A stretch of DNA of 61,909 bases, the filler included, from Hausera hauseri (lineage: Eukaryota), in the NCBI GenBank assembly GCA_046269625.1. It is 11 parts of 11 records of this genome, joined end to end, with 100 filler letters (N's around TTAATTAATTAA, not from the genome) between each part and the next. Parts side by side here need not be neighbours in the genome. Positions count along the whole stretch, not along the records: positions 27,946 to 32,047 come from JBJURY010761429.1; 10 more parts are not named here. One strand, given 5' to 3'. The notes beneath the pieces are model-generated. The model was not told the origin of the DNA, made no database searches, and saw only the letters and a program-made list of their open reading frames with translations. Shown here piece by piece: positions 2,607-53,515 of the stretch (positions are counted from its first letter, which is position 1; each line of letters starts with the position of its first letter). The position numbers and the translations under genes are program-made.

Positions 2607-3700
2607 TAAATCTTTTCGCCTTTCCTTAATTCACTCTCCTTCGCGGCGGGTTTACATCTATTAACGTGGACCTTCAGAAAAGTGTTATTTTTCTTCAAAC
2701 AAATGTTTGGGAGGTTTACTTTTTCTACTTCGTATGGTCCTTTATATGGCTTATCCAATTTAGATGTTTTCCCCTTTTTAATTGTCGGTGAGTATAACAT
2801 TACTTGGTCACTTATCTTAATTTTTGGTTGTTTGGTCTTTTTATCATGGCACTTTTTATATTTCGATTTATAATCCTTTTGATTACATCCAACTGTTTTA
2901 TATGCCAACTGAAGGCGTTCCTGCATTAGCTGTTTATAGCCTTCTATTTCCATTAAGTGTGAAACTGGTTTCACATTAAAATCTAAATCGATTGGTAGTC
3001 TGGCCTCCCTTAAATATATTAGATAATAGGAGGTTTCTTTAGTAGCTTCATGGACTGATGTCCGATTCACAAAAACACATGCATTGATATATTCATCCCA
3101 ATCATCTTGTCTAGTGTTTACCACGTTTGTAATTTCCCTTTTAAATCTCCGATATACCTCTCGACCATTCCATTATTCTCTGGATGTCCAGGTGTGGATC
3201 GTAGTTTTAATATCTTTAGAATGTCATATAGATTGCATTACAGTTCCGGTGAGATTTGTTGCTTGATCAGTCAAAAGTATTCTCGGGCTCCATAATTAAA
3301 TACTATATTCTCCAAAAATTTCTTATCAATTGTATCCGCCTTCATATCAGCCATTGGTAGGGCAACAACCCATCGAGTGAAATAGTCAATAAAAACTAAG
3401 ATATATCTATTTCCATTCCGTGTTAGCGGTAATGGTTCCGTTATATCCATTGCGGTAAACTCGCATGGTGCTGGGGGATTGTCCCAAACTTTGAGGGGTG
3501 CCTTGTATTTTGATCCCGTGTTCTTCTGGGTAGCACATAATTTACAACTGTCGCACCATTCCTGTACATTTTTCGTCATTGTCGGCCAAAAGTATTTTCG
3601 TTTCAGTTTATTAAGCGTCTTACTGGCTGATTGGTGTCCTCCGAGTAGTCCATCATGGTATTGGGTCAACAGAACTGCTCTATTTTTCTTAGGAATTACT
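2606..3700 (-). pseudogene. Gypsy integrase with HHCC, DDE core and GPY/F domain
   Basis: HDGLLGGH..YFWPTM..CDSCKLC; AMDITEPLPLTRNGNRYILVFIDYFTRW; KLDKPYKGPYEV..VHVNRCKP. Confidence 0.93.
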
Positions 3701-3899
3701 AAGGCAGGTCCGTTTTGATGAATAAAATATAAAAATTCCTCTCTTCGTAAGCTTCACTGAATCGGGCCAAATGGCAGGTTAATTCTCTATTATCCGGTAT
3801 GGTTTTGTCCTTTATGTATTTCCGAATGGCCCTTATTTCAGCGTCTTCATTTTGATCCGCCTTAATTTTTTCTACGGATCCATCCATGCTTTATACGGC

Positions 3900-5200
3900 T
3901 GCAACTACTGCTTTTTCTATTTCCGGATTTATGGGTATTCTAGATAGATAATCCGCAATTCCTTTTCGCGATCCAGGTTTATACTGGAAATGAAGCGTAA
4001 AAGGCTGTAACTTTAGAGCCCATCGTAGAAATCTGCTATTCGGATTCTCATGGTGCTTTAGCCATTGGAGCTGTCTGTGATCTGTATAAATTAAAAGGGG
4101 TTTATTTTCACTGATACGGTGAAAATACTTCTAGAGCAAATATTACTGCTAATAGTGCTTTTTCTATCACCGCATATTTCTTCTGGTGTTTATTTAGTTT
4201 TCGTGAAGCATAAGCTATTGGGTGTTCCTTTCCGTCTTCCTCTTTTTGTGATAATACAGCTCCTACTCCGTAATCACTTACATCTGTTGTCACGATAAAT
4301 GGTTTGGTCATATCAGGATAAATCAATATGGGGGCCGTTAACAGTCTGTCTTTTAGATATTCAAAAGTTTTCTGACACTCATTCGTCCAGACAACTTTAT
4401 CTAGGTCTTCATATAATAGTTCGTACAGGGGTCTCGCAATTTTACTAAAATCTTTTATAAACCGTCGATAATAGTTTGCCAAACCTAAGAATCGACGTAA
4501 CTCCATAACTGTACCTGGCTTCGGAAAATCTCTTATTTTTCCTAAAAGCTTGTCCTGGTGTTTTACACCATGCCTGTCTACTCTATGTCGGAGGAAATCT
4601 ACTTCTGCTTGAGCAAGTGAACATTTCTTTGGATTTATCTTTAGACCCATTATTTCGCATCAGAGATCTTGTAGATCCCTTAGATGTTGAAAATTCGGTG
4701 ATGCTATTATTACACGTCAATATACACCATGGCATGCGGGGCATTTAATAGCAGTTCTGTTCCTCTCTGGAACGTTGGCGGACCGTTCTTCAGTGCAAAT
4801 GGCATGCTATTAAATTCCCATAGCCCTTCTCCGATTGAGAACGCCGTTCTTGGTTTATCTTCCTCTTTCACCTCCACTTGTCAGTAGCCTATTTGTAAAT
4901 CAATCGTTGAAAATATTGTTCATCCATGCAGTTTATCTAGTATTTCGTCAATTCTTGGTAACGGGTATGTATCCGTCTCCGTTATTTCGTTCAATGCTCT
5001 ATAGTCTATACAAAATCTCATGGTCCCATCCTTCTTGACCATTACCACTAGAGCTGTCCATGGGGAACAACTTGGTCGAATTATCTTGTTTTCTCATTTC
5101 TTTTTTTTCCTGCTTCCTATTTTTTATCGTATGCTAACCGATATGATCTTTTCTTGATTGGTTTATCTTGTCCATCCTTTAACTTAATGGTATGTTGTAT
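3900..5200 (-). pseudogene. Reverse transcriptase and RNase H (gypsy), frameshifted
   Basis: WEFNSMPFALKNGPPTFQR; MVYID (YIDD remnant); LRRFLGLANYYRRFIKDFSKIARPL; TDVSDYGVGAVLSQ; HPIAYASRKL. Confidence 0.92.
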
Positions 5201-5368
5201 TATTTTCATTGTACCAGATCATAATCATTTTGTGCAAATCGATTGTTATTTTTCTCCAGCAGCTCGATTAGCATCTTCTCTTCCTTAGTTAAGATTTCGC
5301 ATTTTTGTAATCTCTCATTCCAATTGATAGCTTTATTTCTATTTGGCTCCCTCTTCAGTTTTCTGTCA

Positions 5369-6103
5369 TTATTCTATTTTATCTACATCTAAAATTGTTG
5401 AGCAGATTTCTTTCGTTATTTCTTCAATGGTTGTTACTTTTCCTAGTCTAGTATCCTTTCGTAATCGTTTTTCCTTGTTTGGCGTATTAAAAAGTCGTAA
5501 ATGGACTTTTCCATCCCTTACTTTATCTATGTAAGGGGCGATTAAGACTTCATATTTTTCCATAACTTGTGGAAAGGGTTCAAAATGAATAACCTCCGGT
5601 AATGCTTGACTTTCTATTTTGCCGAGTACCACTATCTCGGATCGTGGTGGGATCGTGGTGTCTTTGGTTAGTGAAACCATTCCCTCGTTACGGTCTTCAC
5701 CGAACGTCTTGAGTTGACACGTTCTCACATCTATGTAAGCATTTTCTAATTGGCTTAATATATCACATCCGATTAAAATTTCATTAGTCAAATTATCTGC
5801 TATCCTTTTAGTATGTTTTATAATTTGTTTGCCAATTCTAATTTTGTCATCTAAGACCATCTTAATTTCCTCTTCTGTGCCGAATGCTCCTACATTTATT
5901 AATGTAGTTGTCGGTCTTTGTAATTTCCTTTTTAACTCCTTTGGCAATTGGCTCTTTCCTATTATCATTGTTGTAGATCCTGTGTCCAGTAAGGCCGTCA
6001 TTGGATATCCATTCACCTCTATTTCTACTTCTGGTCTTATAGGTGGTTGCCGTTCATTTTTATCATCAGTTTTATATGTAGATTCGCGTTTGTAGGGTAT
6101 CAA
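5369..6103 (-). pseudogene. Retrotransposon aspartic protease plus PR-RT spacer domain
   Basis: VNGYPMTALLDTGSTT catalytic motif; ILIGCDIL; TTIPPRSEIVV spacer typical of gypsy Pol. Confidence 0.9.
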
Positions 6104-8208
6104 ATTTTCATCAAAACTTTGTTTTCTGTTGCATCTGATGTATAGAGTACAGTCCTGTTAGTAGTACATATCGAGAAGCTGAGGGATTCACTAATGGTTA
6201 CTCGTATAACTGTCCATGATATTCCTCTGGGATCTAAGTGAGGTAAGTCTGTTACTAACTTTTGTCTATATTTAGGCTCTCGGGACCCCAGTGCCAGTTG
6301 TTTAATGCCAGTCATTCGTTTACGTTTTGCTTTTACTTTTACTTGATCACGTTCGATATCGTCATCATCAGGTATGCTATATGGGGAATCTTTTCCATCT
6401 TTTCTTTGTAATATCTTTCTTTTCCATTGTGCGTCGTGGTTTGCTAGGAAACAACTGGCTACTGCCGGTATTACGGCTATTAGAATTTTCCATGAGCATC
6501 CTACTGCTGCATGTATTCCATATGCTTTACCTAGTGCCGTAAATATTGTCCGTAAGGCGCTAATAATAAAATATATAGCTTGAAAACCGGAAGCTGCTTG
6601 GCCAAAATATAAGAACTTTTCCCACATCTTCTCCATAATATTTCTTGTTACTTTATTTAGATAATCTTTGCGCATTAAATTTTCCCATTGTGATAATCCT
6701 TCACCATCCCACATTACTCGCCTTGTTAATTCTGTTATAACGCGTTGTCTTTGTTGTAGGAATAACAACATTCGTCGATAGTCTTCTAAATTTTGTGTAT
6801 CAATTCCTCCCTGTGATATTCCTGTTAACGGTTCAAATTTCTGATTCCTTTTCAAATTAATCAAACTTAATTTCTCCGGTTTGGGCACTGGTTCTCTCTT
6901 TGGTATTCTAATCCATTTATCGTTATAGATCTTAAACATTGGCGACATTAAAAGTGCAATTGTATAGTGGAGTGGGCTTTACATTAATATCGAATAATAT
7001 CCTAGTCACCGGCATAACATATCGCGCTTCTGAGTGATAAACTACAAGTAATTCCATTGTACATTCGTCTACTGGCCTGATTGATACTTCCGCCTTCTTG
7101 CATTCTATTGTTATAAGTACTTCGCCCATCACTTCCGATAATCCCATATCCAAAGGGCATTACTGGCGCTACCATGTCAGGATTCGTTATTACCAATGCC
7201 ATTTTATTACGTATTATTTCATAGTTTAGTTTACATTCATTCATTATTGTTTCTCGATATAAACCTCTAATTTCTTTTCTCACGTAATTAATTAGAAAAT
7301 CGATCTTATCGAAATATTGTTAGCTTTGTCTTTCTTATCTATTTTGATTTTCGCACCGGGTATTTCTTTTCTCAATAAGAAGATACACTTATAGTTGGTT
7401 TTTGATATTTCTTCGCTGCACTTATTTGTTACTCCCGTGATTTTGAATCGCATCATTTCTTCTGGGCTTTCCGAATATACAATTGTAGCCACTTCTGTCA
7501 TCTTGGCTTCCTTTGTTCCTTCTTTATATGTCGCTGTTTCTTTTTCTGCCGTTTTCCCTACTGTTTTATTAAACTTTCCTTCTTTTAGCAGCGTCAGATG
7601 ACATTTACTTGCTATGGTTTCCCATGTCATTTTCGACTCCAGTATCACATTCACCATTATCATATTCACACACTCATAGTCGTCATCAATTTCGTTTGTG
7701 AGTCGAATAATCCTTCATATTCATTCAACTGGATATGATAGTCTTCTATGGCTACCGTTCTAGGCGCAATGGTACCTCCAACATCGTAGTCCACTCCTTT
7801 ACAGGTACCTTCCATTGTTTTATCTATTCTTCCTGCCCTGAAAATTCTGGTATATTTTATTCTGTTTCGAACTTCCGGTATGTGCGCGTTTTGTATAGTC
7901 ATGATGCCAATCTTAAAAGCATCCTGACATTCTGCTCGTGATATGATTATCGGTTCGAAAGGTGTTATGGCTGAATTTCCAGAATAACAGGTACAATTAA
8001 AGAGGAAAAATGATCTCTTTACATAACATTCCCTGATTTTCGCTTTTATAAATTCGGATTCTTGGTATACCCAGTATGTAAGACCACTTGTCGTTGTTAA
8101 CTGTTCTGGGTCGGCTTCTGGACACTTCTCCAAATTAACTAGAGAGTACTTTTGTCCTTCGCTAGGTTTAGAACAATCGTAAGTCACTATACCCACGGCT
8201 TTTGGCAT
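6100..8208 (-). pseudogene. Chuvirus-type (class III, gB-like) envelope glycoprotein, frameshifted
   Basis: N-terminus GIVTYDCSKP..YSLVNLEKC..VYQ..IRECYVKRSFFLFNC. Middle GEVLITIECKKAEVSIRPVDECTMELLVVYHSEARYVMPVTRIL. C-terminus WEKFLYFGQAASGFQAIYFII..AYGIHAAVGCSWKILIAV. These match the pattern I recall for chuviral G and its retroelement-captured copies. Confidence 0.8.
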
Positions 8209-8308: not shown

Positions 8309-9811
8309 TTATTTACTATATAAAACTTATCACATACAGGTACATTATTTTATTTCGAACCTTGGCCGTTGCTACTAGGACAAGTCAGATGTTAGCCACA
8401 GTACCGTTATTCTTTGTCGATATATTGAAATACAATTTTTTTATTCAAAATTACACGGTTTTCCTTCTGTACATTTTTTCCAGAATAAAAGTTTGCCAAG
8501 TGGAGAAGAGTGATGTTTTTGGGTGTTTCGGAACATCTTCGATTAGGAGAATTCGTCTGTTCATAAAATCTCTCTTGCAAAGTCATGGTGATTCTATCAC
8601 CGAAGTTCATCGGGTAGATTGTTGATGAAGCACTAAGTTTATAGATCGGTGTTTCGTTTTCGTTATGGATCAGAATCAGTACACCGTTGAAATCAGATGA
8701 ATCTTCTGGTATTTTTTGAAACTCCTTTAATATTCCATCAAAGTATTCATTTGACATTAACATAGGATTCGAACCATTACTGCGATATAAATATAATTCG
8801 ATGCCCCTAACGTAACCTGATCGAGCATGTAATGCATCGTATGGATCTAAAACAATCTGAAAACAATTGTACATAATTGGATGTTCTTGAGGTTTGATAA
8901 CTTTTAACCAGCTCTTACCATTATAGATACAAGCCAAAAAAGTTGATACCACTTTTGTTCAATAAATTCATTGATTAATAATACAATATTAATAAATAAT
9001 ATAACAATATGGAAATTAGATGAAATTGTCATCAATGAAAGTTTATATTGACATGACATTTTTATAATTATATCTTGAATTTCTAACCTCTATTGCTTTC
9101 ACCACATTTGTTGCTGAAAGCATTATCACCAGCAAGAGTTTTACTATTCACATTAAATTCCCAAGAGATGACATCAGCAAACTTTTCCCAGTCACTTTGA
9201 CTGTCTAAGACTATCGATATCAGTTTAAAATTGTCACTCAAATTAATATGCGATTCTGACACAAACCATTTTTGAATGAAATCCTCAGACAACCTTGAAG
9301 AAAAATTTACCTTTTGTGATCTTTAACATTTCATATAATCCTTTTTACATTTGCCAAATTTGTCCTTTTTTATCTGCGATTGTATTTCATCTTGAAATTT
9401 TAATTGAATGACCTTCTCACATTTAGATATCAAACTTTCAAATTCATTGACAATTATTTGAACTAAGCTCGTATGGTGTCGTCCTGAGTATAATTTGCTA
9501 GTTAACTCTGATTCAATAAACCGATGTCCATTTCCGCTGAATGAATAAACTGTAATTGTGATAGATAATAATACATCGCTTAATTGCATGTCAGCCTGTT
9601 CAAGGGTAATATATAGTCTATAACCTTTTAATGAATTAGATAAGGTCAGCACTTCTGTAATCGAGTTCGCTAAATTTGTAACGATTCTCTTTAGTATGAA
9701 ATTTTCTACGCATTTTACTTTTGAAGTTTGGTCCTTTCGATAATCCGTGATTTTTTATCTAAATAATACTGGTTTCTGGAGAGGATATGAAGTGTCCCCC
9801 TCAGATGCCAT
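8309..9811 (-). pseudogene. DEG/ENaC (amiloride-sensitive channel) family gene, disrupted and 3'-truncated
   Basis: FLACIYNGK..HPIMYNCF..SGYVRGIELYL..GVLILIHNENETP..ITMTLQERFY..PNRRC is the typical DEG/ENaC ectodomain pattern. Upstream YRLYITLEQADMQLSDV..ITV resembles the post-TM1 region. In-frame stops are present. Confidence 0.7.
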
Positions 9812-18900: not shown

Positions 18901-19119
18901 CATTGTTGTTGTTCTTTCGGTCCGCTTCTGTTGGGCACACAAATCAATACTTTCTCAAAACTCATTTATTTTTTCTGAATTATTGTGCAACTTTGTTTAT
19001 ACCCGTACCCTTTTGTTTACTTCTTCGTTTGATATTCAAACGTCTTTCTCTTCCTTTTGTTTGTCGTACCATTACTTACTACATTTCTTTTTTCTGTCAC
19101 ACTATTTTGTTTATAAATT

Positions 19120-27080: not shown

Positions 27081-28097
27081 GAATGTTGGAGCATACAGAA
27101 GAATTTATTGAATTACTGGAGCAAGCCTCACTACTAATATTGTATACAAATCCAAGAAGAGTGGTAATCATAGTATTTCCTGATCCCACAATGTGTCAAC
27201 TACAAGATAGCAATTAAAGGCTATAATCGTCGACTTACAACCCAGCACCTCTATTACACCTAACACGTTATAGCATTGGCATTTTGCTATTGCATCCATC
27301 TCGGAGTCGGACGACAAGAAAATCCTTCTCTTAGCGGGTTCCATGGTGGTCCGACAATCATATGTAAAATATCTGTGCCTGTATTTACGACATTTATCGG
27401 AATGATCATCCTACTCAAAGTTCGGTCACTAAAATTCATCATTGTGTAATTTGTACGACAAGCCAACTTCAGCAAATTAATGAAAATTATTGGTTCAACA
27501 AATTACTATGAATTTCCGATTTCCTTTCTTCAAAATTTTATTATTATAAAAATTAGGCAACAAGATGAAGCACCCGACATTTACTTTGATTATTCAATAA
27601 TTCGTAATTAATTTAAAACATTTTATTCAACTTCCAGCATTAATTTCCTAATTGGGTACTGCATTGGGATTTCTATTTTGTCCGTCCATATAATTTTTTG
27701 GAGTCAACGATGAAGGTTTCATGGGAAATTAAAAGTATTCTGCACCGATTTGAGTGTAGCAGCAATATCATCATATAGGAATTGAATTGGTTCTTTTTCA
27801 CGTTCAGAGGAATCGTCACTATAACTTCTATTACAATCCAAAAGTNNNNNNNNNNNNNNNNNNNNNNNNNNNNNNNNNNNNNNNNNNNNTTAATTAATTA
27901 ANNNNNNNNNNNNNNNNNNNNNNNNNNNNNNNNNNNNNNNNNNNNTGACAAATCTAAACTTTTATCAATCTCACAACCCTCATCAAAATAGAGTGGAATC
28001 TTTTTATCGTCGTCTTCCATGGGAGTAATATTTGAATGTGCATGGAAATGGTATTTATATTTTGTTGTTCTTATGCAGCGTACATTATTTTCACTCA

Positions 28098-28549
28098 CTA
28101 AAACATGTGGTTTTTAATTTGATTAATAATGTATGTATAGTCCACTGCCCGTATACGGAGTACAACAATTTTTCCACTGCTTAACGCATCGACACAAAAT
28201 GGGCAAAATAATGTCAGCCTCAGTTCAAAAAACAGTTCGGTTCATACGTACAATCAATGGCCATTGATAATTTGTACAGATTGATTGATGGACAGTCTAA
28301 CTGTGTCGTTACCGTTATTGATTGTATTTGGTCAATGATAATTCCGAATTGTAGTAGTTTACTGTTACCGTTGTCAGCTGTGATTGGTTTGCGACAACCC
28401 ATAATACGGCACTTTCCCGAATAAAATATGATGCATGTAAAATCCGGTGGACACTTGAGGACATACTGCCTCGGATTTTATTGATTAATAGGTAGGGTAT
28501 TAATGTCACACTCGGCAGCATGTCCGCGATAGTTGATATTAGCTAACAT
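28098..28549 (-). pseudogene. Polinton-encoded minimal TBP-like protein (~150 aa; one stop, one frameshift)
   Basis: MLANINYRG..QYVLKCPPDFTCIIFYSGKCRIMGCRK (repeat 1, IF.SGK..+G), then IQSITVTTQLDCPSINLYKLS..YEP/ELFFELRLTLFCPFCVDALSSGKIVVL (repeat 2). Aligns with 12422-12712. Confidence 0.78.
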
Positions 28550-28575
28550 TATAGAAACAGTGTTTACATTATAGC

Positions 28576-28606
28576 TATTTATATGCGTGTAACACGATTA
28601 TAAACA
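28576..28606. promoter_or_regulatory. Back-to-back TATA boxes of a divergent promoter (TBP-like gene and ATPase)
   Basis: TATAAATA on minus (28576-28583) lies 26 nt before the TBP-like ATG. TATAAACA on plus (28599-28606) lies 36 nt before the ATPase ATG at 28643. Confidence 0.55.
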
Positions 28607-28642: not shown

Positions 28643-29295
28643 ATGAAGCTGCAAAATGATGCAATTTTCCAGATTGCAGGCCCCAGTGTAAGTGGTAAAA
28701 CACACTTTTTGTGTAAACTATTGCAGAACTACCGTGATATGTTCCATTAACCACCGTACAATCACATATTCGCATCAGGCTGTTGGTGATGATGGTGAGT
28801 CCGGTTTGACACATCGGAATTTTGAAAATTAAAATCGATAACGGTAATTGATGGGTTTGATGAGAACTGGCCTGAGAAATTACGCAATGGTGACGTTATT
28901 GTCATTGAAGATATATTTCAGGAAGCCGCGAAACAATTGGACTTCAACAACATGTTCCCGAAGATTGCACGACACCGTGGTGTGACGGTTATTTCATTAC
29001 GCAAAACATGTTCCATCAAGACGGACAGCATTGAACAAGAAGTCTAAACGTACACTATTTGGTGTTGTTTAAAAATCCCAATGAGCAGACTACCATTAAT
29101 TATGTTGCATGACAAGCATTTCCTCGCAACCGAGCTTACTTCATAGATGAATATCATGATGCTACGACCGAGCCACACGGATACCTTTTTATTGATTTTA
29201 CACAACAGTGTCCCGATGGCATGCGTGTAGAAAGAGATATTTTTAATAAGAAAGGTGTATGTGTCTATCTACAAATTCTAAAATCGACGACATAA
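28643..29295 (+). pseudogene. Polinton packaging ATPase
   Basis: IAGPSVSGKT Walker A; VIVIED Walker B; IARHRGVTV; LNVHYLVLFKNP; DATTEPHGYLFIDFTQ. Confidence 0.9.
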
Positions 29296-29539
29296 TTGAG
29301 ATAAAATGAAGAATTTTCGAAAACCAATTGTTATACGTAAACCTACCAAGCGGGTGTCCGGCAAGTAACGTGTATCAAAACGAACCGCTAAAGTCTAGCG
29401 ATTAATTAATTCTGTGCTTAGAACAACAACAGCAGTATCTAGACGTAAATTTCCGTCACAGTGGCAACGGCTATAAACAATTGCGTCTCGTCAGCATAAA
29501 TACGTTCAAAAATGCGATTCAAACGTAGTCAGCCGTAAT

Positions 29540-29829
29540 TTATTGCTTTGCTCAAGGCACCAACGAGACATAAGCGAAACATGCTACAATCATTTCCGCA
29601 ATTTGTTGAGGACGATTTGATGGAAATTTTTTACAATATCGTTGTGGGTTGCGTTGATATTGGTAGTGGAAAGTGGAATTTCCTAAAGTATTGAAAACGA
29701 CTCATTGACCTTGCCAACGCTCGTAGTAAACGCTCGTAGGTCATGTATCAGCAAGATGGCGGATTCCTTCGTGCAATTCTATTGATTGCCACGTCATTAA
29801 TGGGTAGACTCTTTGGTGGAACAGTTTAA
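29540..29829 (+). pseudogene. Polinton small protein ending in QDGGFL plus an amphipathic tail
   Basis: YQQDGGFLRAILLIATSLMGRLFGGTV* carries an adenain-type xGG|F cleavage signature. Confidence 0.6.
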
Positions 29830-29867
29830 TATAAACAATGACGGTAAGTATATAGTGATTTAGCGAT

Positions 29868-31012
29868 ATGGATGCATGGTATAACTTATTTTGTCCCAGT
29901 TTACTGAATATTTCATTAACGGTTCTTTATAATTGCTGTAGTGCTAACAAAAACGACATCATCGACTACATCGACGATAACGACGGGCGACGTGTGGTGC
30001 GATCCGCGTCATCACGTCGGGTATACTGGCGTCGACAAACTGGCAAAGACTGTTAAACAGATTCGACAACAAACCGAACGTTGGCTCAGGAAACAGTTAG
30101 CATACAGCCTAAACAAACCTATAAGAAGGCGGTTTCCAACTCATGCATATCGTGCTGCCGGTATAAATAACGTATTGCAAATGGATCATGTGGAAATGAT
30201 TCCGTACGCCAGAATCAACGATGGGTATCGGTACGTGCTGATATTTATTGATGTGTTTAGTCGTTTTTCATGTGCAATTGCTGCGAAACCTAAACCCGAT
30301 AAAAAGATTGCCAAGGCTGTTTAGATACTGATACAACAACAACAGCAGCTAAAGCATTTACAAATGGATTTGGGTAAGGAATTCTACAACGCTCACATTT
30401 CAGCAGTCTTAAAACGCTTTGGCGTAAACCACTACTCGGTGTTTTTCTAATACAAGGCTGCACTCGTCTAACAATTTAATCGAACATTGCGTGGTCGCCT
30501 AAACAAATTCTTTACGAAGCAAGGCAACAAACGCTGAGTAGATGTACAGACGGTTATTATTCATGCATACAATCATTCGACACACCGTGAAATCAACGGA
30601 ATGAGCTTGGTTGACGTAATCGATGATTTAAACATGTGGCTTTATCACAAACGAACAAAACTACAGGCAATTAAATGCCAAAAATATAAAATCGGAGCTT
30701 ACGCACTTATTTCCAAAATAAGTACAAAGCCACTCGTTAAGAATTTTAATCAGAACTACGGCGACGAGGTTTTCCGCATTTCGAAAATCAACACAAAACA
30801 AACACATATCAGACGTTTTAGAGGATGAAAACGGTGAAGAAATACGCGGTAAATTCTACAAACAGGAATTGCAGGTACTGCCCGAGAAACTCGATGCTTA
30901 TCGTATTCAGAAAATTCTACGTTCACCTGTCAAAGGTTCAAATAAACATTATCTCATCAAGTGGCACGGATGCAATGCACCGAGTTGGATTTTTTCATCA
31001 CAGATTCAATGA
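29868..31012 (+). pseudogene. Polinton integrase with C-terminal chromodomain
   Basis: LQMDHVEM..IDVFSRF; LQMDLGKEFYN; GEEIRGKFYKQEL; YRIQKILR..HYLIKWHG..SWI. Confidence 0.92.
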
Positions 31013-32047
31013 GCAGTAGCATTTACTTGGTACTTGATAGTAAAAGATCAATATCACAACATGACGACAATGACAATACTGCTAAACAATTTACCATGCA
31101 CTTGGACCAACTGGTCGATTTACGCCAAGGAGCTTGGGAAGTGGCTTTGACGGAATTCACATTTACATTTTCACCAATGATTACGTCAGAACAGTTGTAT
31201 TTACTTTACTCGACAAGAAACGTACCCTATTTCAAGTCGCTTGCGGACAATCCGACACAATAACCGATATATTCTTCGCAATTATTCGCGACAACATTTC
31301 TCGGTTTAGGCTTATTTTTCAAACTACTGTATGAAAGTAATGCATGGAAATCCCATTGAAATGCAGTTTAAATCTATAACTGATGCGCAGGCATGGAGTT
31401 TTCAATCAGTCAATGTACACTAAAAACGTCTACGTCTAGGTGGACATGTTATAATTAATGAAAAATTGGACCTTTCATCCAATGAGGAATCCCATATTAT
31501 AGTAAAGTGGACTAAGTCAAAATCAATCTTTCGCTCATATATTATACCACATGATTTATTAATGGAAACGAAACTGGAATTGTGTGAATACGTCAAGAAA
31601 ACGGCTACACTAGCTGCAAAGGCATGCGAAATAAACGCAGATCGTAATATTTCGCTTACACTACGTGACAATGTAACATATTTTGCCTTTGATAAATTAT
31701 TGTTTCGGAATTTGGGTTTTCCAAAACGCGAAGTCTATCAAGCCATTATTGGATAATCTATTGTTGCTAAATACAAACCACAACTCTCTGGAGCATTTCG
31801 TAGACTGAAAATTTAACGGACTTAACCGAATCCATACTCGTTGGTGGAGAACGTAAACAACTACTGACGTCTATCGAAGTGGATTCTGACACGTACAAAA
31901 CATAGGGTAAAACTGTTCGAGCTAATATTTTCATACATATGTATTTATCATTGTCTCCCAATATTGTGCACAGTATTTCCGTAAATATGCTAGATGAATT
32001 TTGGGATCCCATTAAATTTCTGTTTGGGTCAACGACATATTTATCGT
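31009..32047 (+). pseudogene. Polinton minor capsid (penton) protein
   Basis: IYLVLDSKRS..NTAKQFTMHLDQLVDL..WEVALTEF at the N-terminus and DLTESILVGG..LL..YLSL..ISVNMLDE..IKFLFG at the C-terminus. Confidence 0.85.
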
Positions 32048-32617
32048 NNNNNNNNNNNNNNNNNNNNNNNNNNNNNNNNNNNNNNNNNNNNTTAATTAAT
32101 TAANNNNNNNNNNNNNNNNNNNNNNNNNNNNNNNNNNNNNNNNNNNNATCCGCTGACTGCTACGTTGGAATGTTGGCATCACCAATCTGATCACCTTTGA
32201 CAAAATCTTCCACAAACCGTGTTTGACGTTGACTGTCATCCATCTCATAGTAATCCGCTAATTTCTGATAAGTGCGAAAAATCTGGTCGAATACCGTGTC
32301 ATGTCACCAACAACCTGCTTCATATGTCGTATATGAGGTTCTCGAACCGTCCAATTCTCCTTAGCACGCAGAAGTATTTCTTCGGGCAAACAGTATCATG
32401 CATCATGTAAAGGTCGATCAAGATGGTAAAGGTGACTCCGGAGACCGTCGAAGGAGTGATACAAACGAATGAGTTCTGATAAATTAGACATGTCGTAATG
32501 TCATGCCGTAACGAAGCATAAGTATTTATACTGAAATGTATCAACAACAACAAAGACACGCAAAATAAATTATATTGATTCACGAAAACAAATGCAACAA
32601 AATATGCACAAATGTAA

Positions 32618-32896
32618 TTAAATACGGTCAATCAACTTTCTCATTACCATATAAAGCGATGCAGAAAATACAAATCCAATGATGCAATTAATCCGCTTTT
32701 GTCGTTGTTGTCGTTTTCGTCTCATTTCATCCTCGATACGTTTTACGAATAGAGATCTGACTATTAATTCAATATATTCTCGCCTGCTCATTATTCTCGT
32801 TTCTGTGAACTCACATAAAAACTGTACAACAAACACATATCCAGTCATTATGTCATCGGTCAATCTTTGAATCTCACTTTCAATATACTGTTCCAT
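32618..32896 (-). CDS. Small helical tail-anchored protein, possibly Bcl-2-like
   Basis: MEQYIE..LTDDIMTGYVFVVQFLCEF..RRKRQQRQKR followed by C-terminal TM INCIIGFVFSASLYMVMRK. TATAAACA upstream. Confidence 0.4.
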   Translation of the reverse strand: MEQYIESEIQRLTDDIMTGYVFVVQFLCEFTETRIMSRREYIELIVRSLFVKRIEDEMRRKRQQRQKRINCIIGFVFSASLYMVMRKLIDRI

Positions 32897-33083
32897 TAGA
32901 TTAGTAGTAGTAGTAGTAGAAGTATGAGAACAAATGTTTATAACAGAGTAAGGCAATTTCACAGTCCATTGGGGTTATGTTTAATGTTTAATTTTACGAG
33001 TTTGTATTTTAATTTATTTTATTTTTAATTTTAATTTATTTTAAATGTTAATTTGTTTAAATTTAGAAATGTAAGCAATATCC

Positions 33084-36000
33084 CATGTATTGCGTCTCGC
33101 GCATACATGTAAAGGATCATTGTCATCATCAGATGGAGAAATATTACAACGCAGGACGAAAGGACACGTAATAGTGTCCAGCGTGTAATATTCCAATCCT
33201 CTGTCCGTACCCCGATTTTTATGAAATGCACAGGCATCATCTTGGTCCGTTTACACGATCTAAGAAGATGATCATGAATTTGCATTGCTCCGTATACCCA
33301 CGGTACTTTAATAGTACAACAGTGCATGACTTTGATAATTGTCATAGTAGAATGGAGAGTACTATGGCGTCACAGTGGTGCACGGTAAACCGGCCTATGT
33401 TTGTTCCGGTTGTTCTATAGTTGAAGCACAAATCAACTATGAACAATTTTATAATAAGCACAAGGACCACTTGAACCAATTTCAGCGGTCCAAAAAGCAA
33501 ATAGTAATAAGCATTGCCCCACGTACCCACACTACTGCAATAATAAAGTGCACACGTTAGTGGTTGTCATAGTTCAGTGGAGCAGTACTATGGCACCACA
33601 ATGAACGGGCCTACGTTTGTCCCGGTTGTTCGATAGTTGAAACTCAAATCAACTATGAACAATTTTATAATCTGTACAAGGACCACTTAAACCAGTTTAA
33701 GCGGACTCAAATACAAGCAGCATGCCATCAACAACAACCAGTAGGAAATATCAGGTCTTAGCCAGTCTTGACTACTTAATCGGAAGCTGTACAGAGCAGC
33801 AGCAGCAACAGGAGCAGCAGGAATAGCATCATCAGCAACAACAACAAGAACAGGAGGTCAATATTCCCATTACAGTCAAGTACGATCTGAACAGATCGTA
33901 CGTAGACATAAATGTGAACATGTCGGCGAAAACAACAACTCAACTGAGACATTTTCCCCAAAATGTGCTTAACTGGTTGGAATCCGAAGTGGAGAAATTC
34001 AAACATCATTGCAAAATGCAATATTGCAGAATTCGAAAATTTGGAAGGTGACAGGAAACAATGGTACCTGTCACATCGAGCCAAACTGTATTCCGACTAT
34101 TTTGTTGCCGATGTAGGCGAAAAGCTCGACGAAAAAATCGCCAAATATCCCGAAAAGGGTAGTTGCTTGCAAATTATAAAAATTGTCACTTTCGGCTTTA
34201 TCATAACAAGGTCGAGTAATATAATTTACCTGTTCGGACGATCATTCATACCGACACCTACAGCTCTAAAGCACTGTTATGCGGTATTGAATGTAAAAAT
34301 ACCGACGACGACGAATACTGTTTCATTTACAGTATTCTGGCCGTATTAAAATATGACAAAGTAGGTAGACATAGTGCATATCGTCCAAATCAGTATCCGA
34401 AGTATTTTTCCGAATTGGACTTTGATGAATGTTGGATGTCGATGAAAATGAAAACCATTCCGACTTTTGAGCGGCGTAACCGGACGCTGTTAATTAACGT
34501 GTTCCGGTACAACACAATCGTAGAAATACCGGAAGACGAAGAGATTTACAAGAACCCCCATGTGGGCATAATCTATAGAAGTCGGAACCCGAATGGACGC
34601 CCAATAAATTTGTTGTTGTTAGAGCAAAAGGAGGCGGAAATTTTTCATTATGTGGCCGCGACAAATTTGTACAGACTGTTGAACATAGAACATGACCAGT
34701 TCATCGAAAAGCGTATACCTTGTAAATGGTGTCCTGTATATCTGCATGGATTCGGGTCAGAAACAACATGGGAGAAACATGTGACACTATGCAGACAAAA
34801 TTCATCGGAAACAACAACATATATCATGCTCTTCAAAAAGGAACTAAGGTTCACTGATTGGTGAAAACAAGCTGTTTGGCATATGTAGTATATGCCGATA
34901 TCGAAGCTATCTTATCAAGACACAACATATATGACCAAAAACATGTTCCAACCGCTGTCGGTATGTTGGTAGTCTCAATAAAAGCTGCAGGCCACCAACA
35001 ATATTATGTTTTTCATGGCTAGAACTGCGTACGCGATTTCCTGCACCAGTTGGAAACAATAATAGAAACGGAAATCGCACCTCGGTACAGTAGAGATAGC
35101 AATAAACCTTTTATGTGGACAGATGAAGCTGAGCGTCTGACGTTTGCAGTCACAGATGAATGTTACCTGTGCCACAAAATATTACCGTTTGATGCACAGG
35201 AACAGCTCAAACCGGATCACGACCATTTTACCGGTCGATATCTCGGAGCCGCATGTAATTCATGCAATTTGGCAAGGTGTGTGCAGCCATTCCTACTTGT
35301 GGTATTCTATAACTTCAGGGGTTATGATTGTCACCATATTTTTAAATGGGCCTTAAACAGATTTCTGCACTGAAAACTATCCATAATTCCGACTATGATG
35401 GAGAAATACCTGTCACTGTCTGATCGTATTAACCCGTTACAGGTACACTTTCTCGATTCATTGAAATTTCTCAACGAATCTCTGGTAAAGCTGGTAAATG
35501 CCTTGCCAGATGTGCCGCTAATATTGAATCAGTTCTCCACACGTATTGCACGTAGCAAAGGCATATTCCCGTATGACATTGAGATATTGTACGAGCGACT
35601 CCAGACGACAGACGATTTACCACCGCAATGGCTCGGTATCATAGAAAAAGAATATCACGAAGCACAGTCGTTTTGGGCAGAGCTCGGCTGCAGAAACCTG
35701 TTGGAATAAATGCTTTAGTATCTGAAATTGGACGTGTACTGTTAGCCGATGTGTTTCAGACATTTCGAGCTAAAGCGTTGGAAGAAGATAGGCCGGAGCC
35801 ACACAACTTTTACTCAATACCCGGAATGAGTTGGGCATCAGCTATAATGTCACTGGATCGGGATATCCAGCCATTGCAAGACCCGGAAATGTACCGAATA
35901 TTTGATGTTGGTATTTGTGGTGGCATGACATTTGTCAACAAGCATCACGTAACCAGTGATGATACGGCATCACTGTTGTATATCGACATTAATAGCCTAT

Positions 36001-37161
36001 ACGGCTGGGCGCTTTAATAACCCTTGCCGTAAGGTTCGTTGGAATGATTAGTCGACAAACAGGACCTGGACGACATAATGGAAAATCTGCCGAGAGCAGA
36101 TACAACAGAAAACAGCTCAATCGGGTACCCGATGGAAGTCGATCTCGTGGTACCAGATGAGCTGAATAATTTTCTGGATGAATTACCGGTCGCACTAATT
36201 ATCCAATGTCCGCTGGGCTCAAAGGTGAAGAAGCTGCTTATGACGCATGAACCCAAGCAAAATTACATAGTTCATTGGCGTCTGTTGCAATTTTACATCG
36301 ATCAATCCGATTAGCACAGGCTTTAACATTCAAGCCGTGCATCAGTCGGAATTCGGAAAAACGAGCTGCAGTTTGTACGAAGTTTGAAAAAGTCTATTAA
36401 AAACTGAAAAACAAATCTTTCTACGGAAAAACAGTAGAGAATCTGAAAAAGCGGCTCAATGAACGCCTATGCAATAGCGAAAAGCCGTTGGTCACATACA
36501 CGAGCAAGGCACAATTCAGGCAATCAATGTACATTGCCGATGGTTTGGTTTCCGTGCTTTTAAACAGGAAATAAGTCGTACTAAACCAGCCAAGTTATAT
36601 AGGACAAGTGGTATTTGACCTGAGCAAGTTGCGGATGTATAAGCTGCAGTATCGCGATTTGGTACGTTACCGGCAAATGTTTGGTGGATGCAAGATAAAT
36701 ATAATTGCCGGTGACACAGACAGTTTTTTCTTGGAACTGAAACACGTCAGTCGCGAACAACTAGTGCGGCAAATGATGTTAGAAGGATTACTGGATACGT
36801 CCAATTACCCACAGAATCATTCATTGTACAGCAGCTCCATCACAAACAAAATCGGTTGTTTCAAGGATGAAAGTGAAGGTCGGCCTCAGTATCCAGAGTG
36901 AATATTTCAACGGCCAAAATGTTTAAGCCTTTTAACTGACTGTGGACCGAAATTTCGCACCAAAGGAGTTCAGTTGGAGCAGACGGAAATAAACCACGGT
37001 GATTATCGCCTTATCTATGAAGAAGAAGGACAATCAAAGGCTGTTGTGTCTCAAACGATCATCCGATCAATTGAGCAGCAGCTGTATGTGGTGATCAATG
37101 CAAAAGTCGCTTTATCATGTGGAATAAGAGTTTGGCGTACCGACATTGGCGTTTTGAATAA
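33084..37161 (+). pseudogene. Protein-primed DNA polymerase B with an endonuclease-VII-like zinc insertion, heavily frameshifted
   Basis: YADIEAIL; CYLC..DHDHFTGRYLGAACNSCN; FYNFRGYDCH; FLDSLKFL; KGIFPY; YIDINSLYGWAL; KNKSFYGKTVENL; GDTDSFF; IGCFKDE; RPKC. Confidence 0.93.
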
Positions 37162-38079
37162 AACACATATGAATTCGGCACTGATGATACAGACAGATAA
37201 AAGTGACTCATTTACTGTGCCAATTCATTGTGATTTGTGTTTTGTGAATAATGCATATTGTTCGTAGTTTTGCCTCTTGTTTTATTATCATTTAATTTAT
37301 CTATATATTTAACTAAATGTTACGAGAAACAATGTGAAAAACAAAATCCATAAAATTCATTAATTATAATCTAAAATCAAAAACAAAGTAATTCAAATCA
37401 GCGTAAACTTTCCAAGCTTCCATATTGGTAATTTAACGCCGTGCAGATCCTTGTATCCTTTCAACTTCAAAGTCAGATAGCCTTTAGCTCCTTCAGGTGG
37501 CAAAACTGCTGCTGTTGCTGTTTATCCGCCATGTGAATTGACAATTTTTGCCACATTTCCTTTGAGAAAAATCGACGATGTATCTCGGATACCTCTACCC
37601 AACACCAAACCACTGTCAGCTTTTCTATTTGTGTCGTCCACTGCATCCAAATCATTGTCGCTGATCTTTTTCATCAATAGACCATATTTATCGGTTTAAT
37701 TTTGACCGTTTGCGTCAATGGCAATTGAATAGCCTTGCGCAGCTAATGTAAGTTGTATCCATTATACAAACGCAAATTTCTGAGCGAATACTCGCTGTAT
37801 CTTGGCATTTTTAAGAGACTCGCGGAACTGTCACCTGCTGAATTGTTTTCAAAAGTCATTGTTTAAAGACAAATGCAAAATGAAATTGCATCCATATTTA
37901 TATCGGATTTGTTCATACCGTTTTTTTTTCATTGTAAACAATAGATATTTACCTTGTGAGCATTGCCTCATATCCGTATGATGCATATTGTCTCATCACA
38001 ATGATACATACTAGTTAAAATTACCTCCACGTCATTGTAGCCCATGACACTGTTTCGTTCTGTTATTGAATAAGTCATT

Positions 38080-38561
38080 CGTAATAAAGGTATACAATTT
38101 CAATTATAGCAAATTTACAATCTAAACATTGGGTTCCTTTGGAACACATTTTACAAGATGGCCGCAAAAACAAGATGGCCGCACATTAGGAATACCGTAC
38201 TCACTTTTCTTTGTTTACATATTACAAACATAAGCTGATAGTGTCGTACTTTGTCCATTATTTTCTTTTTCAAGTTCTTTAATTCATTGCGTACCTTTTC
38301 TACAGCATTAAAGTAATTTGTATCATTCAGTCGGTGAATGTAAATTTGATTTAATACAATAATTAGATTTTCTATAGAACTGCAATCTGTTGTTGTTGTC
38401 GTTGTCATTAATGCTATTGACGCTAAATCTTCTTTAAATCCAAAATTGCCTGCTGCTCTCGCATCCAAATCACTATCAAGTACTTGCCACCATCGTACCA
38501 AGTCTGAAATTGCTAATCTATCAGAATTTTGCAATTGCTTCAATTTATTAACTATTTCCAT
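38080..38561 (-). pseudogene. Coiled-coil plus IAP-type RING finger protein
   Basis: QLMFVICKQRKVSTVFLMCGHLV is a decayed C3HC4 of the IAP/Mdm2 class (C..C....+FLPCGHL). Confidence 0.65.
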
Positions 38562-38709
38562 GATGATTAATATTATTATTATAACCTACCCGTATTTATA
38601 GTTTTTGAATTATTCAACTGACCAATACGGCTAAAGATGTCACGGACCTTATTTACAGAAAGAAAGAAAGAAACAGCGAAATACATTTATTTATTTGCAT
38701 GAAATTTAG

Positions 38710-39179
38710 TCAATACAAAGCCGTAGACATCTTTTGTAAGCATAATGCGGTCAATGATCACGATACGGACATCTAATATTGTCAGGTACCATCGCCAGCG
38801 AGCTGTTATATGTTGAATGTGTCGTCATTCGCAACTCGGGAAAGTGTGAATGTAGTTGCGTAAACTTCTGACCGTCAATTTGATCTTTAATGTAAAATAT
38901 TGTATTTTTAATGTTAAAACGATTATAAATCTCTCCCATAATACATGTCACACAGAAAATTGAATTACCTTTATACCTAAGACGTCCCTGATGATGTTGA
39001 AAGAGAAATACGTCTGTAAATTTCGCCTTTTCCATCAGGTAATTCCACACAACACCAGGCTTGAATACGTACACAATCGGTTTGAAAATGTTACCGACGT
39101 CCATAATGCATAATTATTTTATTATGTACCGGGCATTATCAACTTGGAAAGCTTCAATATCTGTAAATCCTGTAGCCAT
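38710..39179 (-). pseudogene. DEDD-like nuclease-fold accessory protein
   Basis: MATGFTDIEAFQV..YIIK*LCI..YVFKPG..W..HHQG..FYIKD..CPYRDH. Shows the D-x-E ExoI-like motif and the FKPP/HG pattern I associate with Polinton accessory ORFs. Confidence 0.55.
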
Positions 39180-39329
39180 TACTTATCATGTACAAAATCA
39201 TTTTTTGCTTATAACACAAACAAAACAAATAACTATTATTATTATTATTATTATTACCACAATCATTAAACATAGGCGGTTTTGTCCATATCACCAAACC
39301 CAAATTCTTTGCATTCATTTTGTGTTGGT

Positions 39330-39735
39330 TCCTTGACACAAAACAATCCCCTCGTTCCGGTGGCATTACATTGAATTCAGCCGCTTCACATCGAAGAAAT
39401 ACAATTTGTGCTATTGCATTGCCTTTCGCAATATCATACAATAATCCGGATTGATTTTCCAGCAACATCTTAATTTCACCACGGAAGTCTGAATCAATGA
39501 CACCGCCCACAACTGTCAGTCCGAGCTCTGCCAGTCCGCTTTTCGATAAAAGTTGGCCGTAGTAACCGGGTGGAATCGCCAATCGAATCTCAGTCGTTAT
39601 GCATTTAATTGTGATATCCGAAATTGTCGTATTAACATTGGAAAACACATCGTAGCCGGCACTGTTTGCTGTAACACGTCTTGGTACAACTGCATTTTTG
39701 TCTGTTAAGATAATCTTTACATTATTCATTATCAT
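39330..39735 (-). pseudogene. dut: dUTPase with a damaged C-terminal motif V
   Basis: SAGYDV; IPPGYYGQLLSKSGLA; GGVIDSDFRGEIK; GNAIAQIVF; ERG. Confidence 0.93.
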
Positions 39736-40619
39736 TATTCTTATACGTATACCAGTATTAAAATTACACGTATATTTATACTCGTTAATTGGGTTAATNN
39801 NNNNNNNNNNNNNNNNNNNNNNNNNNNNNNNNNNNNNNNNNNTTAATTAATTAANNNNNNNNNNNNNNNNNNNNNNNNNNNNNNNNNNNNNNNNNNNNGA
39901 TTTGTTTATTTACTGGAACTATTAACTTCCCTGTCCTTTTTGAACGGAAGATTGAGGTGAGGTAATTTCCTAACTTAGGGTTTTCCCAAACATATGTATT
40001 CTCGAAAACTTCTCTTGCTGGGGCAACTTTGCTGTAAAACATAGCTTCTTTAATTATTTTCTTACTACAATATTCTGTGGATCTTCTTTTCTAAAAGTAC
40101 GTTGACTTCAGTTATTCTATATTCAATAACTTTCTTCTTTACGGACTTTACCTTCTGAGAGGTACTTGGTTCGATTTGTTGATTTTCATATTTTAGCTTA
40201 TCTTTTCTTTCTTTCTTGAATAAGTAGTTGTAAATAGATAGCGTTTTCTTGGGCTGGGGCTTTTCTTCTAATTTATGTTTCTTTATTATTGTTTCTGGCC
40301 TCCATTCTTTTGTGTATTTTTCTAGAGACTTTGGCGCTACATGGAGTATTTTGTTTCCTTTTCCGATCGCTTGTAGGTCACTTTTATCTTCCTCTTGTCC
40401 TTCCATAGGTTTTTGCACTGTGGTCGTCATATTATGCTTGCATGTTGACTGGACAGTTCTGATCGGATAGTAAGGTTTGATATTTCTTCTATATTTTATA
40501 TCTATTTGCTCGGGCTTCAAGGAACTACGTAAATTGTATATGGGGTTTCTAAGGTCCCATTCGTGTTCCAGTTTAATGATTTATAAATTTCTTGCTGATA
40601 TTTGCAGCGTTGGCTAGCC

Positions 40620-51865: not shown

Positions 51866-53515
51866 TCACATACTCCATATTTTAATGATAACATTAAATA
51901 AAAAGACAAATGCATGAAATCGATACAAAAGTTGCAATGGTAAATACATATTCTTACATATTGACCAAAATATGAAATTATCACCATTTTGAATCTCATA
52001 TAACGAAAGGGGCGAACCATTCTCAATAATCAAAACAAGAAGTAACCCCAAATTAGATATACAAAGCACGAATGTTGGCGACATGAATTCTGTCCAACCA
52101 TTTTTCTTAGCTCTAACATTCGTGTAAATCCATAGAGGAGACGTTTCATTTGTCTCTATTTCTGGATAATTACCAGTATCAGAAGGGTTTAATAAATTTC
52201 CATATTCTCGTCGTAAGATCTCTTGACACAAAATTGATTGAACAATAACCTGAAATACACCGAATGCCTTTACCGATATGATCCCATTCAGCCGGGGATT
52301 TGTTCCAAGTAAACTGATACATGATCCAATAATTCCAATACCGCCTAGAATTTCTCCAAATGACCCTAATATTATTGCTAAATAATCCATTTTGTTCTTT
52401 CCATCATTTTTTGGTTTCCAACTGTACACGTCAAACCATACGGCAATCCCTGCAGCAATACATATGACATACGTTATTATTTCCACTGTAAAGTAAAAAT
52501 TCGATTCTGTTGCCAATGACTTCCAAGAATTATACTGCTTACCCGCGACAACTAACAAAATAAACAATACAACTCCTACTATTATACCACCGAACCGAGG
52601 TTTTAATGCTTCCCGAAAACGTTTCGATAAATCATGCAACGATTTTTTATTGTTATATTTCGTCGATTCTCCTTGTTTTTCTTTAACGTTATCTATCTCT
52701 TGCAAATCATAGACTTCTTTATGAAAGTCTTCGAATATTTGTATTACGGGGAATATTAGTTGTATAGTACAAATCGATAAAAACAAATCGACACAGATTT
52801 CTAAAGATGATTCCGTGTATTTTGTATTCATATCCACATTCAAACAATTGGAACTGTTGTATTTATAGACGTATTGTAAAATATCCGATTTCTGCTTAAG
52901 TCCGATCGACCGAAAATTTATGAATAGTGTACTCACAAACGTCATTGCACCGGACATCGTATGAACAGCATTCATTTTATTGTGAGTCTCTAACCATTTT
53001 TCGCTGGGTTGTTTTACAAGTCGTGGCTCTGTCGTTGTTATTATTATTAAATATCCCAGAAGAAATGGATAAAACATCAACACCATTATTTCTCGATAGT
53101 AATACGACGGCCCACAGTTATTATTTCGTACTAATGTATTAAACAAATAAATCGAATGCGTCACGGCTATTATTGTCAATAGTATATTCGTATAGAACAA
53201 AGGTTTATTTTCAACTTTCTTCTTCTGGAAATAACTATCTTCTCTATCGGTTTCGTTTGTTTTGGAAAACTTGTAGAAAAATACGGACGTGGATAGTATT
53301 GAAAATAAGCAGAGTGTTCCTTGGAGAATGTTTAGTGATTCGGTTAAACTATTGTTTTTATAAAACGATTCCAGAATAACCAGCGTAATGACAGTAGTCC
53401 CGAAAAGATATAGAATGATATGCATTATCAAAAGTAATTTGAATCGAATATTCATTGAAAATTTAGGAATAGGAAAGAATTTCATTTCGTTACACATTGA
53501 AAACAAAGGTATCAA
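51866..53515 (-). CDS. Divergent otopetrin-family (proton channel-like) multi-pass membrane protein, single exon, likely ATG at 53497
   Basis: About 12 hydrophobic segments. C-terminal FVLCISNLGLLL..E..FWSICKNMYLPLQLLYRFHA matches the otopetrin W.+...PL.+FYRFHS signature. Intact 549-codon frame. Confidence 0.75.
   Translation of the reverse strand: MIPLFSMCNEMKFFPIPKFSMNIRFKLLLIMHIILYLFGTTVITLVILESFYKNNSLTESLNILQGTLCLFSILSTSVFFYKFSKTNETDREDSYFQKKKVENKPLFYTNILLTIIAVTHSIYLFNTLVRNNNCGPSYYYREIMVLMFYPFLLGYLIIITTTEPRLVKQPSEKWLETHNKMNAVHTMSGAMTFVSTLFINFRSIGLKQKSDILQYVYKYNSSNCLNVDMNTKYTESSLEICVDLFLSICTIQLIFPVIQIFEDFHKEVYDLQEIDNVKEKQGESTKYNNKKSLHDLSKRFREALKPRFGGIIVGVVLFILLVVAGKQYNSWKSLATESNFYFTVEIITYVICIAAGIAVWFDVYSWKPKNDGKNKMDYLAIILGSFGEILGGIGIIGSCISLLGTNPRLNGIISVKAFGVFQVIVQSILCQEILRREYGNLLNPSDTGNYPEIETNETSPLWIYTNVRAKKNGWTEFMSPTFVLCISNLGLLLVLIIENGSPLSLYEIQNGDNFIFWSICKNMYLPLQLLYRFHAFVFLFNVIIKIWSM

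Follow-up and report, generated by a model that had tools for sequence, protein, structure and literature searches.

A minimal TATA-binding protein encoded by Polinton-type elements and a candidate promoter box before their virion genes

Decayed Polinton-type DNA from Hausera hauseri carries a broken gene for a minimal, two-lobed TATA-binding protein (TBP), and intact relatives of this gene form a family joined to Polinton core genes. In the family loci a positioned box, YATAAACR, precedes most genes of packaging or virion type and none of the TBP genes. From these sequence patterns we judge it probable that the intact protein is a viral factor made early, which binds YATAAACR and, together with the host's TFIIB and Pol II (RNA polymerase II), starts late transcription. 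The window (the whole stretch of DNA that was analysed, 61,909 nt with filler) consists of 11 contigs joined by N linkers, and the TBP-like gene lies on contig 6 (27946-32047, 4.1 kb).

The gene occupies 28098..28549 on the minus strand (about 150 codons) and was identified by PF00352, tblastn and a tree. Its reading frame runs from an ATG at 28549 to a stop at 28098, and is interrupted by an in-frame stop in the N-terminal lobe (28478..28480) and by a frameshift in the C-lobe stirrup (YEPE motif; ~28229..28238), where tblastn segments from two reading frames adjoin. In a Pfam scan of 81 window ORFs the 85-aa piece after the stop matched PF00352 (28.4 bits, E 1.5e-6, cut-off 22.9), and the last piece of 47 aa had no Pfam match on its own. 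Both pieces are covered by intact relatives (tblastn, combined E 1e-23 to 1e-24). A sequence-only reading of this DNA had described a two-repeat TBP-like gene hidden by one stop and one frameshift, and that gene, with the motifs quoted for it, is present in contig 6. The end of the span given for it, 28098..28606, takes in the 94-nt promoter region between the genes. Several C-lobe positions that are otherwise near-invariant in the family have also changed in this copy. With its stop, its frameshift and this drift, the window copy is a fossil and cannot work. A second TBP copy lies on contig 2 (12422..12712, minus strand; PF00352, 40.5 bits). The same reading had taken it for a better-preserved homologue; the homology stands and the frame is open, but the piece is the C-terminal lobe alone, truncated at the contig end, and it belongs to a different subfamily, being 81-86% identical to the intact 144-164-aa proteins P0001-P0004. 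No other element gene was detected beside it on contig 2.

With the contig-2 piece as query, 43/43 candidate proteins carried PF00352, most of them whole at 144-164 aa. Intact relatives measure 144-175 aa (family median 151 aa) and score 56-63 bits against the cut-off of 22.9. A family alignment (A2) of 33 of those proteins served as search profile, and among 1.84 billion it matched, at E<=1e-30, 61 clusters formed at 50% identity. Of 1627 candidates for the same profile, 542 proteins reached E<=1e-12, a number that may include cellular TBPs and of which the best 120 are listed. The gene is a family trait, as had been supposed, and not a one-off capture. One run contained the family at high copy, with 24,825 records spread over all 30 bins and mostly 90-95% alike, which shows that relatives are abundant but points to no habitat or host. 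Scans of viral contigs recovered neither a family member nor a Polinton control (they yielded 5 distant TBPs and two weak ATPases), phage records gave no match, and an ESM Atlas search returned TBP clusters with uninformative taxa.

An AlphaFold model was obtained for the intact relative P0017 (pLDDT 95.3). Foldseek gave 44 PDB matches at E<=0.001, and all matches listed were TBP. The model aligned with human TBP over all 149 residues (Z 13.1, rmsd 2.8 A), and the next unrelated fold reached Z 5.8. It has two C-lobe helices only and no N-lobe helix. On this model the family has the two-lobed saddle fold of TBP, which agrees with the fold originally proposed from the window copy.

The genes around the broken TBP gene are decayed to a similar degree. 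Four genes follow one another on the plus strand of contig 6: the packaging ATPase, then the small basic ORF, the chromodomain-bearing integrase and, last, the penton-like gene. All four contain stops or frameshifts, so that the whole contig-6 element copy is a fossil. The A32/FtsK-like ATPase (28643..29295) is broken by stops plus a frameshift near 28993, and shares 47-67% identity with the intact ATPases of loci L008 and L032, which match Pox_A32 in Pfam. The small basic ORF (29512..29829; 42-44% identity to its L008 and L039 homologues) likely encodes a virion core protein; an Adeno_PX match was sub-threshold and came from one relative only. The integrase is of retroviral type with a C-terminal chromodomain (29992..31006; 50% identity to the L032 integrase) and gave weak rve and Chromo matches in Pfam. 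The penton (minor capsid)-like gene (31009..32047, to the contig end) was found by tblastn, through N- and C-terminal matches to a gene that lies between the integrase and the major capsid gene in L008, L032 and L035. It has no Pfam match, and the name penton is our assumption from its position and an N-terminal motif. An integrase and a penton had both been claimed for this element, and both were matched on contig 6, the latter under a name given by position. On the minus strand a short acidic ORF (ATG at 28020) runs off the contig, and a TATAAATA box precedes it at 28052..28059. Contig 6 thus carries both a packaging ATPase and a retroviral-type integrase, two genes expected of a Polinton/Maverick (adintovirus-like) element. 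It is an internal element fragment: PolB is absent from its 4.1 kb and present on contig 7, and a capsid-like gene was not found anywhere in the window.

Other contigs hold further pieces. On contig 4 (17505-19546, minus strand) a second decayed element piece comprises an ATPase lacking its 5' end, a small basic ORF and an integrase; three TATAAACA boxes lie on its coding strand, and no TBP gene was detected on that contig. Contig 7 (32148-39798) carries a broken PolB (34026-37141), RING and dUTPase genes, an ORF at 38718-39167 that is common to TBP-adjacent loci, and an ORF at 32618-32974 (minus strand), with a TATAAACA box at 32935-32942, whose homologue separates the TBP gene from the ATPase gene in L018 and L039; its genes likely belong to the same element family. 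A remnant of an adenain-type protease (Peptidase_C5 relatives) lies on contig 3 (12952-13243, plus strand), and the C-terminal tip of a PolB on contig 5 (23681-23776, plus strand). Contig 1 (3271-8208, minus strand) contains a Gypsy-type element in which a Monjiviricetes-like fusion glycoprotein gene lies upstream of protease, RNase H and integrase pieces. Two further minus-strand features are a piece with a weak DEG/ENaC (ASC) match at 8407-8958 and a 556-aa open frame with an Otopetrin match at 51866-53536. Pieces of these kinds, alongside Gypsy elements, suggest that the host is an animal.

The genomic setting of intact relatives was taken from a metagenome scan in which 314/599 candidate stretches were confirmed and the best 80 of the 314 were kept. 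Forty-five were treated as family loci (L006-L049 plus L055, the latter added after its ATPase was seen), and 40 loci that carry some other TBP, 21 being >=4.5 kb, served for comparison. A Polinton core gene was present in 20/45 family loci, in 8/9 of those >=4.5 kb, and in 0/40 comparison loci; the reference proteins for the core genes were drawn from seven of the family loci, which match themselves, and their identity comes from Pfam. In loci L008, L035 and L044 the TBP gene shares a block with those for ATPase, integrase, PolB and the penton-like and major-capsid-like proteins, which upholds the claim of an element origin. The capsid-like gene of related loci had a weak Capsid_N match only (E 0.007), and the capsid and penton names are putative ones taken from size, gene order and that single weak match. 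A protease (Peptidase_C5 relatives) stands beside TBP in L030 and L042. Divergent transcription of TBP and ATPase, which had been read from the window, holds there and in L039, where the two genes are likewise head-to-head; as a constant of the family it was rejected, since ATPase and TBP lie on the same strand in 14/16 loci and on opposite strands in 2/16. The gene upstream of TBP (L008:1502-2135; also L009, L011 and L028) looks spliced, with GT...AG between two ORFs, and its second exon folds like the T7 gp2.5/Enc34 single-stranded DNA-binding proteins (Z 7.3-7.8). In L035, L038, L040, L041, L044 and L046 the TBP is longer (165-173 aa) and keeps N-lobe helical segments, and this clade adjoins PLA2-like and KilA-N genes.

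Residues were counted over 117 proteins of <80% identity out of 161 that had been selected by two N-lobe motifs; conservation of the two selection motifs themselves was read from the unfiltered alignment A2. Residue numbers follow yeast TBP, with the register cross-checked. The stirrup motif EPExFP is near-invariant in the family, and the C-lobe stirrup glutamates are kept in 112/117 and 117/117 proteins. These glutamates are TFIIB contacts (Ravarani 2020, PMC7221094). Phe is kept at three of the four intercalating positions (117, 116 and 117 of 117), and the fourth position (F99, first in order) is Pro in 114/117; the set of four Phe of canonical cellular TBP is therefore not found in the family. 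The N lobe is reduced: the span of helix 2 is 20 residues, against 33-34 in cellular TBP, that of helix 1 is 21 against 30, and the basic helix 2 patch of eukaryotic TBP is missing. In cellular TBP the N lobe is the binding site of TFIIA, TAF1, Brf1 and Mot1 (PMC7221094). The L035 clade, with its proteins of 165-173 aa, keeps a longer, non-basic N-lobe segment, so the reduction is graded and this clade is likely an intermediate in it. The DNA face has changed as well. The equivalents of V71 and V122 are invariant Asn and Arg in alignment A2, and those of I194, V203 and L205 are Arg, Cys and Asn (111, 113 and 117 of 117). Changes at the last three positions give TBPm3 its new specificity at base 2 (PMC1636458). 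An altered DNA sequence preference would be the natural inference for the family TBP. With both N-lobe helices and one Phe gone, its hold on DNA could be weaker.

These surfaces bear on the job of the protein. The TBP fold might have been reused outside transcription, for instance to bend or hold DNA while it is replicated or packaged, with the box unrelated to it. The TBP gene often lies between the SSB-like gene and the ATPase, and the very divergent Giardia TBP binds single-stranded DNA; the family, however, keeps three of the four Phe where Giardia TBP is without three, and its near-invariant stirrup has TFIIB binding as its known role (PMC7221094). We regard such a non-transcriptional role as very improbable. 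Only somewhat less improbable, in our judgement, is that the element TBP is one half of an orthogonal viral TBP-TFIIB pair, with a TFIIB-like or other partner encoded by the element. Large DNA viruses often encode both TBP and TFIIB with co-evolving interfaces, and the family loci examined are partial; yet no TFIIB match was found by Pfam among 76 locus proteins (48 + 28) or the 81 window ORFs, the commonest upstream neighbour of TBP is a match to a gp2.5-type SSB at a middling Z of 7.8, and the family's stirrup glutamates resemble those of the host, in contrast to large-virus TBPs, for which divergence at the glutamates is reported (both points on large viruses from PMC7221094).

The descent of the gene was analysed in a tree of 79 TBP rows (quick search, LG+G4), composed without animal TBP or TRF2. 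A long branch (SH-aLRT 97) separates 44 rows, comprising both window copies and all family loci, from 35 cellular and other viral TBPs. The four TBPs from viral contigs fall on the cellular side of this branch, and several rows labelled archaeal-like group with eukaryotic TBP. A constraint that placed the window copy with the eukaryote-type TBPs, a group delimited after the tree was seen, was rejected (p-AU 0.005). The window copy has a best identity of 48% to family members in the tree, and an intact relative has ~20% identity to cellular TBPs. Identities of TBP and ATPase correlate over 11 loci (rho 0.81, driven by three clades), and third codon positions differ most in 3/4 gene pairs, the fourth pair being near-identical. 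By these sequence comparisons, the TBP gene co-descends with the ATPase.

A recent host TBP or TRF2 retrocopy, decaying in one element copy, would also account for a broken gene, and the tree was built without the animal TBP or TRF2 sequences that such a copy would resemble. Against a retrocopy stand hundreds of intact relatives, the identities and the AU test just given, co-descent with the ATPase, and the equal breakage of that copy's ATPase, integrase and penton-like genes. In addition, N-lobe position L5.1 is Phe and not Trp in 117/117 family proteins, where TBPL1/TRF2 has Trp (PMC7221094). Grouping with host TBP had been named in advance as the outcome that would count against a viral gene, and the family stands apart from the sampled cellular TBPs. 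We consider a retrocopy scarcely credible; the present data refute it, unless TRF-type paralogues from animals should prove to belong within the family.

Upstream regions were compared after near-identical ones had been removed (TBP 39 to 36, ATPase 15 to 14). Between -65 and -11, YATAAACR was found before 37/44 packaging and virion-type genes, 0/36 TBP genes and in 98/5310 background windows. By gene, it preceded 13/14 ATPases, 10/10 small basic ORFs, 4/6 penton-like, 3/4 capsid-like, 4/5 PLA2 and 3/5 myristoylated-type genes, the six classes that make up the 44, and, outside these, 2/7 integrase genes. The box lies 33-58 nt from the ATG, mostly 33-40, and always in sense orientation (37/44, opposite 0/44). 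An unbiased 6-mer scan ranked ATAAAC top, in 40/44 packaging and virion-type genes vs 1/36 TBP genes. The 44 promoters are not independent, as they are drawn from only about three clades. Upstream of the TBP genes TATAWAW occurred in 16/36 and TTGTTTWA in 12/36, with both in one, and 20/36 had no canonical TATA. The TTGTTTWA motif, which in our estimation resembles a forkhead site, lies 31-65 nt before the TBP ATG in L008, L012, L015, L016, L021, L022, L024, L026, L028, L029, L030 and L032, and is nearly exclusive of TATAWAW. In 6/10 cases the box of the small basic ORF overlaps the terminal YKQ codons of the ATPase. This near-invariant YKQ is encoded by TATAAACAA in many copies (alignment A3; window 19108-19115), so its conservation may stem from the promoter box of the next gene.

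The same arrangement is preserved in the fossil on contig 6. A canonical TATA box, TATAAATA, lies 34 nt before the TBP-like start (28576..28583, minus strand) and is predicted to be an early promoter read by host TBP. A TATAAACA box lies 44 nt before the ATPase ATG (28599..28606, plus strand), as in the 13/14 family ATPases, and is predicted to be a late promoter. A second TATAAACA box lies 40 nt before the small basic ORF (29472..29479, plus strand), matching its 10/10 homologues, and a third before the integrase region (29830..29837, plus strand), where the nearest fitting ATG is 38 nt on and the gene uncertain. The target first put forward for the viral TBP was TATAAATA; this turned out to be the box before the TBP gene itself, and the likely target is YATAAACR. 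Enrichment of the box over the whole window was rejected, with 17 observed and 17.5 expected. Contig 6 alone has 3 boxes vs 0.9 expected (reached in 65/1000 shuffles, only suggestive), and the contig 4 element 3 vs 0.4 (10/1000 shuffles).

Under the reading we favour, host TBP would transcribe the element TBP gene early, from a canonical TATA or a TTGTTTWA-type promoter. The changed saddle of the element TBP would then prefer YATAAAC, its kept C-lobe stirrup would dock host TFIIB and hence recruit Pol II, and the loss of N-lobe helices would free it from control by TFIIA, TAF1, Brf1 and Mot1. As an outcome the packaging and virion genes would be turned on, giving an early-to-late switch without a viral polymerase. 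The intact family protein is expected to prefer YATAAACR over TATAAAAG, and to show a preference for C at position 7 among TATAAACA, CATAAACA, TATAAAAG and TATAAATA. Redirection of host Pol II to element promoters, the role first suggested for this protein, has indirect support from the kept TFIIB stirrup together with a positioned box.

Alternatively, the box could be a weak TATA that is recognised by TBP or some other factor of the host, and the small TBP a decoy or repressor that soaks up TFIIB or occupies promoters, damping host or early genes. A cellular TBP was crystallised on the C(-25) variant of the adenovirus TATA box (1QN3), a variant which we take to be TATAAACG, and host TBP can on this showing bind a box of the YATAAACR type. 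ATAAACA, to our eye, resembles a forkhead site, which we count for a host-factor reading, and a kept TFIIB stirrup with a lost coactivator surface would suit a dominant-negative protein too. The C(-25) complex contains a Hoogsteen pair (PMC8643651). Against a decoy or repressor, the box is confined to one strand (37 vs 0 of 44) at TATA distance, unlike an enhancer site, and its C at position 7 is fixed, while TATAWAW or some different promoter serves TBP and further genes of early type. The DNA-face residues, moreover, are changed and fixed, not decayed. We consider this alternative unlikely, though the least so of those weighed here, and continue with the element TBP as a late-promoter factor.

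Compared with cellular TBP, the element protein shares a two-lobed saddle along its whole length, the EPExFP stirrup and three of four Phe. It differs in size (~150 aa vs ~180), in missing both N-lobe helices in the clade of the window copy, in the Pro at the fourth Phe position, in fixed polar residues on the DNA face, in its low identity and in being encoded by a mobile element. The beta- and gammaherpesvirus TBP mimics (KSHV ORF24, EBV BcRF1, HCMV UL87) bring host Pol II to the promoters of late genes (PMC7498053; PMC8360532). In the model proposed for the elements, as in those viruses, a virus without a polymerase supplies a TBP-fold protein for a variant TATA in late promoters. However, the herpesvirus proteins are large, with an N-terminal Pol II-binding domain, act in a six-protein complex and read TATT, whereas the element TBP is a bare saddle with the TFIIB stirrup kept and YATAAACR as its candidate box. 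An N-terminal Pol II-binding domain is not seen in the family, the TBP fold spanning the whole chain, and the fold match to BcRF1 is weak (E 0.011); on present evidence the two are not orthologues. TBPs of Nucleocytoviricota and mirusviruses also have a TBP fold without the eukaryotic N-lobe signature (PMC7221094). The best BFVD match was the TBP of Heterosigma akashiwo virus (E 5e-7, 14% identity). Most Nucleocytoviricota and mirusvirus TBPs serve viruses that themselves encode an RNA polymerase and, in many cases, a TFIIB as well.

Adintoviruses, Mavericks and Polintons resemble the related loci in the PolB, integrase, ATPase, protease and capsid-type genes that surround TBP there. A TBP label appears in an adintovirus genome map (Starrett et al. 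2021, PMC8502044), so that a TBP among these viruses is not entirely without precedent; in the available part of that paper it is a label only, without analysis of family, residues or promoters. The core gene set of vertebrate Mavericks does not include TBP (Barreat and Katzourakis 2021, PMC8097293), and the words TATA and TBP are absent from that paper, a coral polintovirus paper and two 2026 preprints. In the literature searched, a link between polintons and TBP was found only in Starrett 2021 and its preprint, with no treatment of the family, of its residues or of the box; the gene may be named in figures, GenBank annotations, Repbase or subscription papers. The novelty implied at the outset accordingly extends to the family and its promoter, on which no paper was found, and not to the presence of a TBP. 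A bolder proposition, which we advance tentatively and hold to be a little short of an even chance, is that a widespread Polinton clade drives a late-gene programme of its own by means of the smallest natural two-lobed TBP (145-150 residues), its DNA face re-wired for YATAAACR and its N-lobe regulatory surface wholly shed. This protein would engage host TFIIB and Pol II without intermediaries, as an orthogonal module for promoter recognition that is independent of the herpesvirus and giant-virus solutions.

To our knowledge, the timing of capsid and packaging genes in Polintons, which encode no RNA polymerase, is unexplained. The window copy is a fossil of such a system only. In the family as a whole, the factor and the box before the virion genes are both conserved, a combination that is the hallmark of a lytic programme run in stages; factor and box therefore bear on whether these elements are working viruses. 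A TBP of 150 aa without the surface for TFIIA, TAF1 and Mot1 is, in addition, a natural probe of the minimum needed for Pol II initiation.
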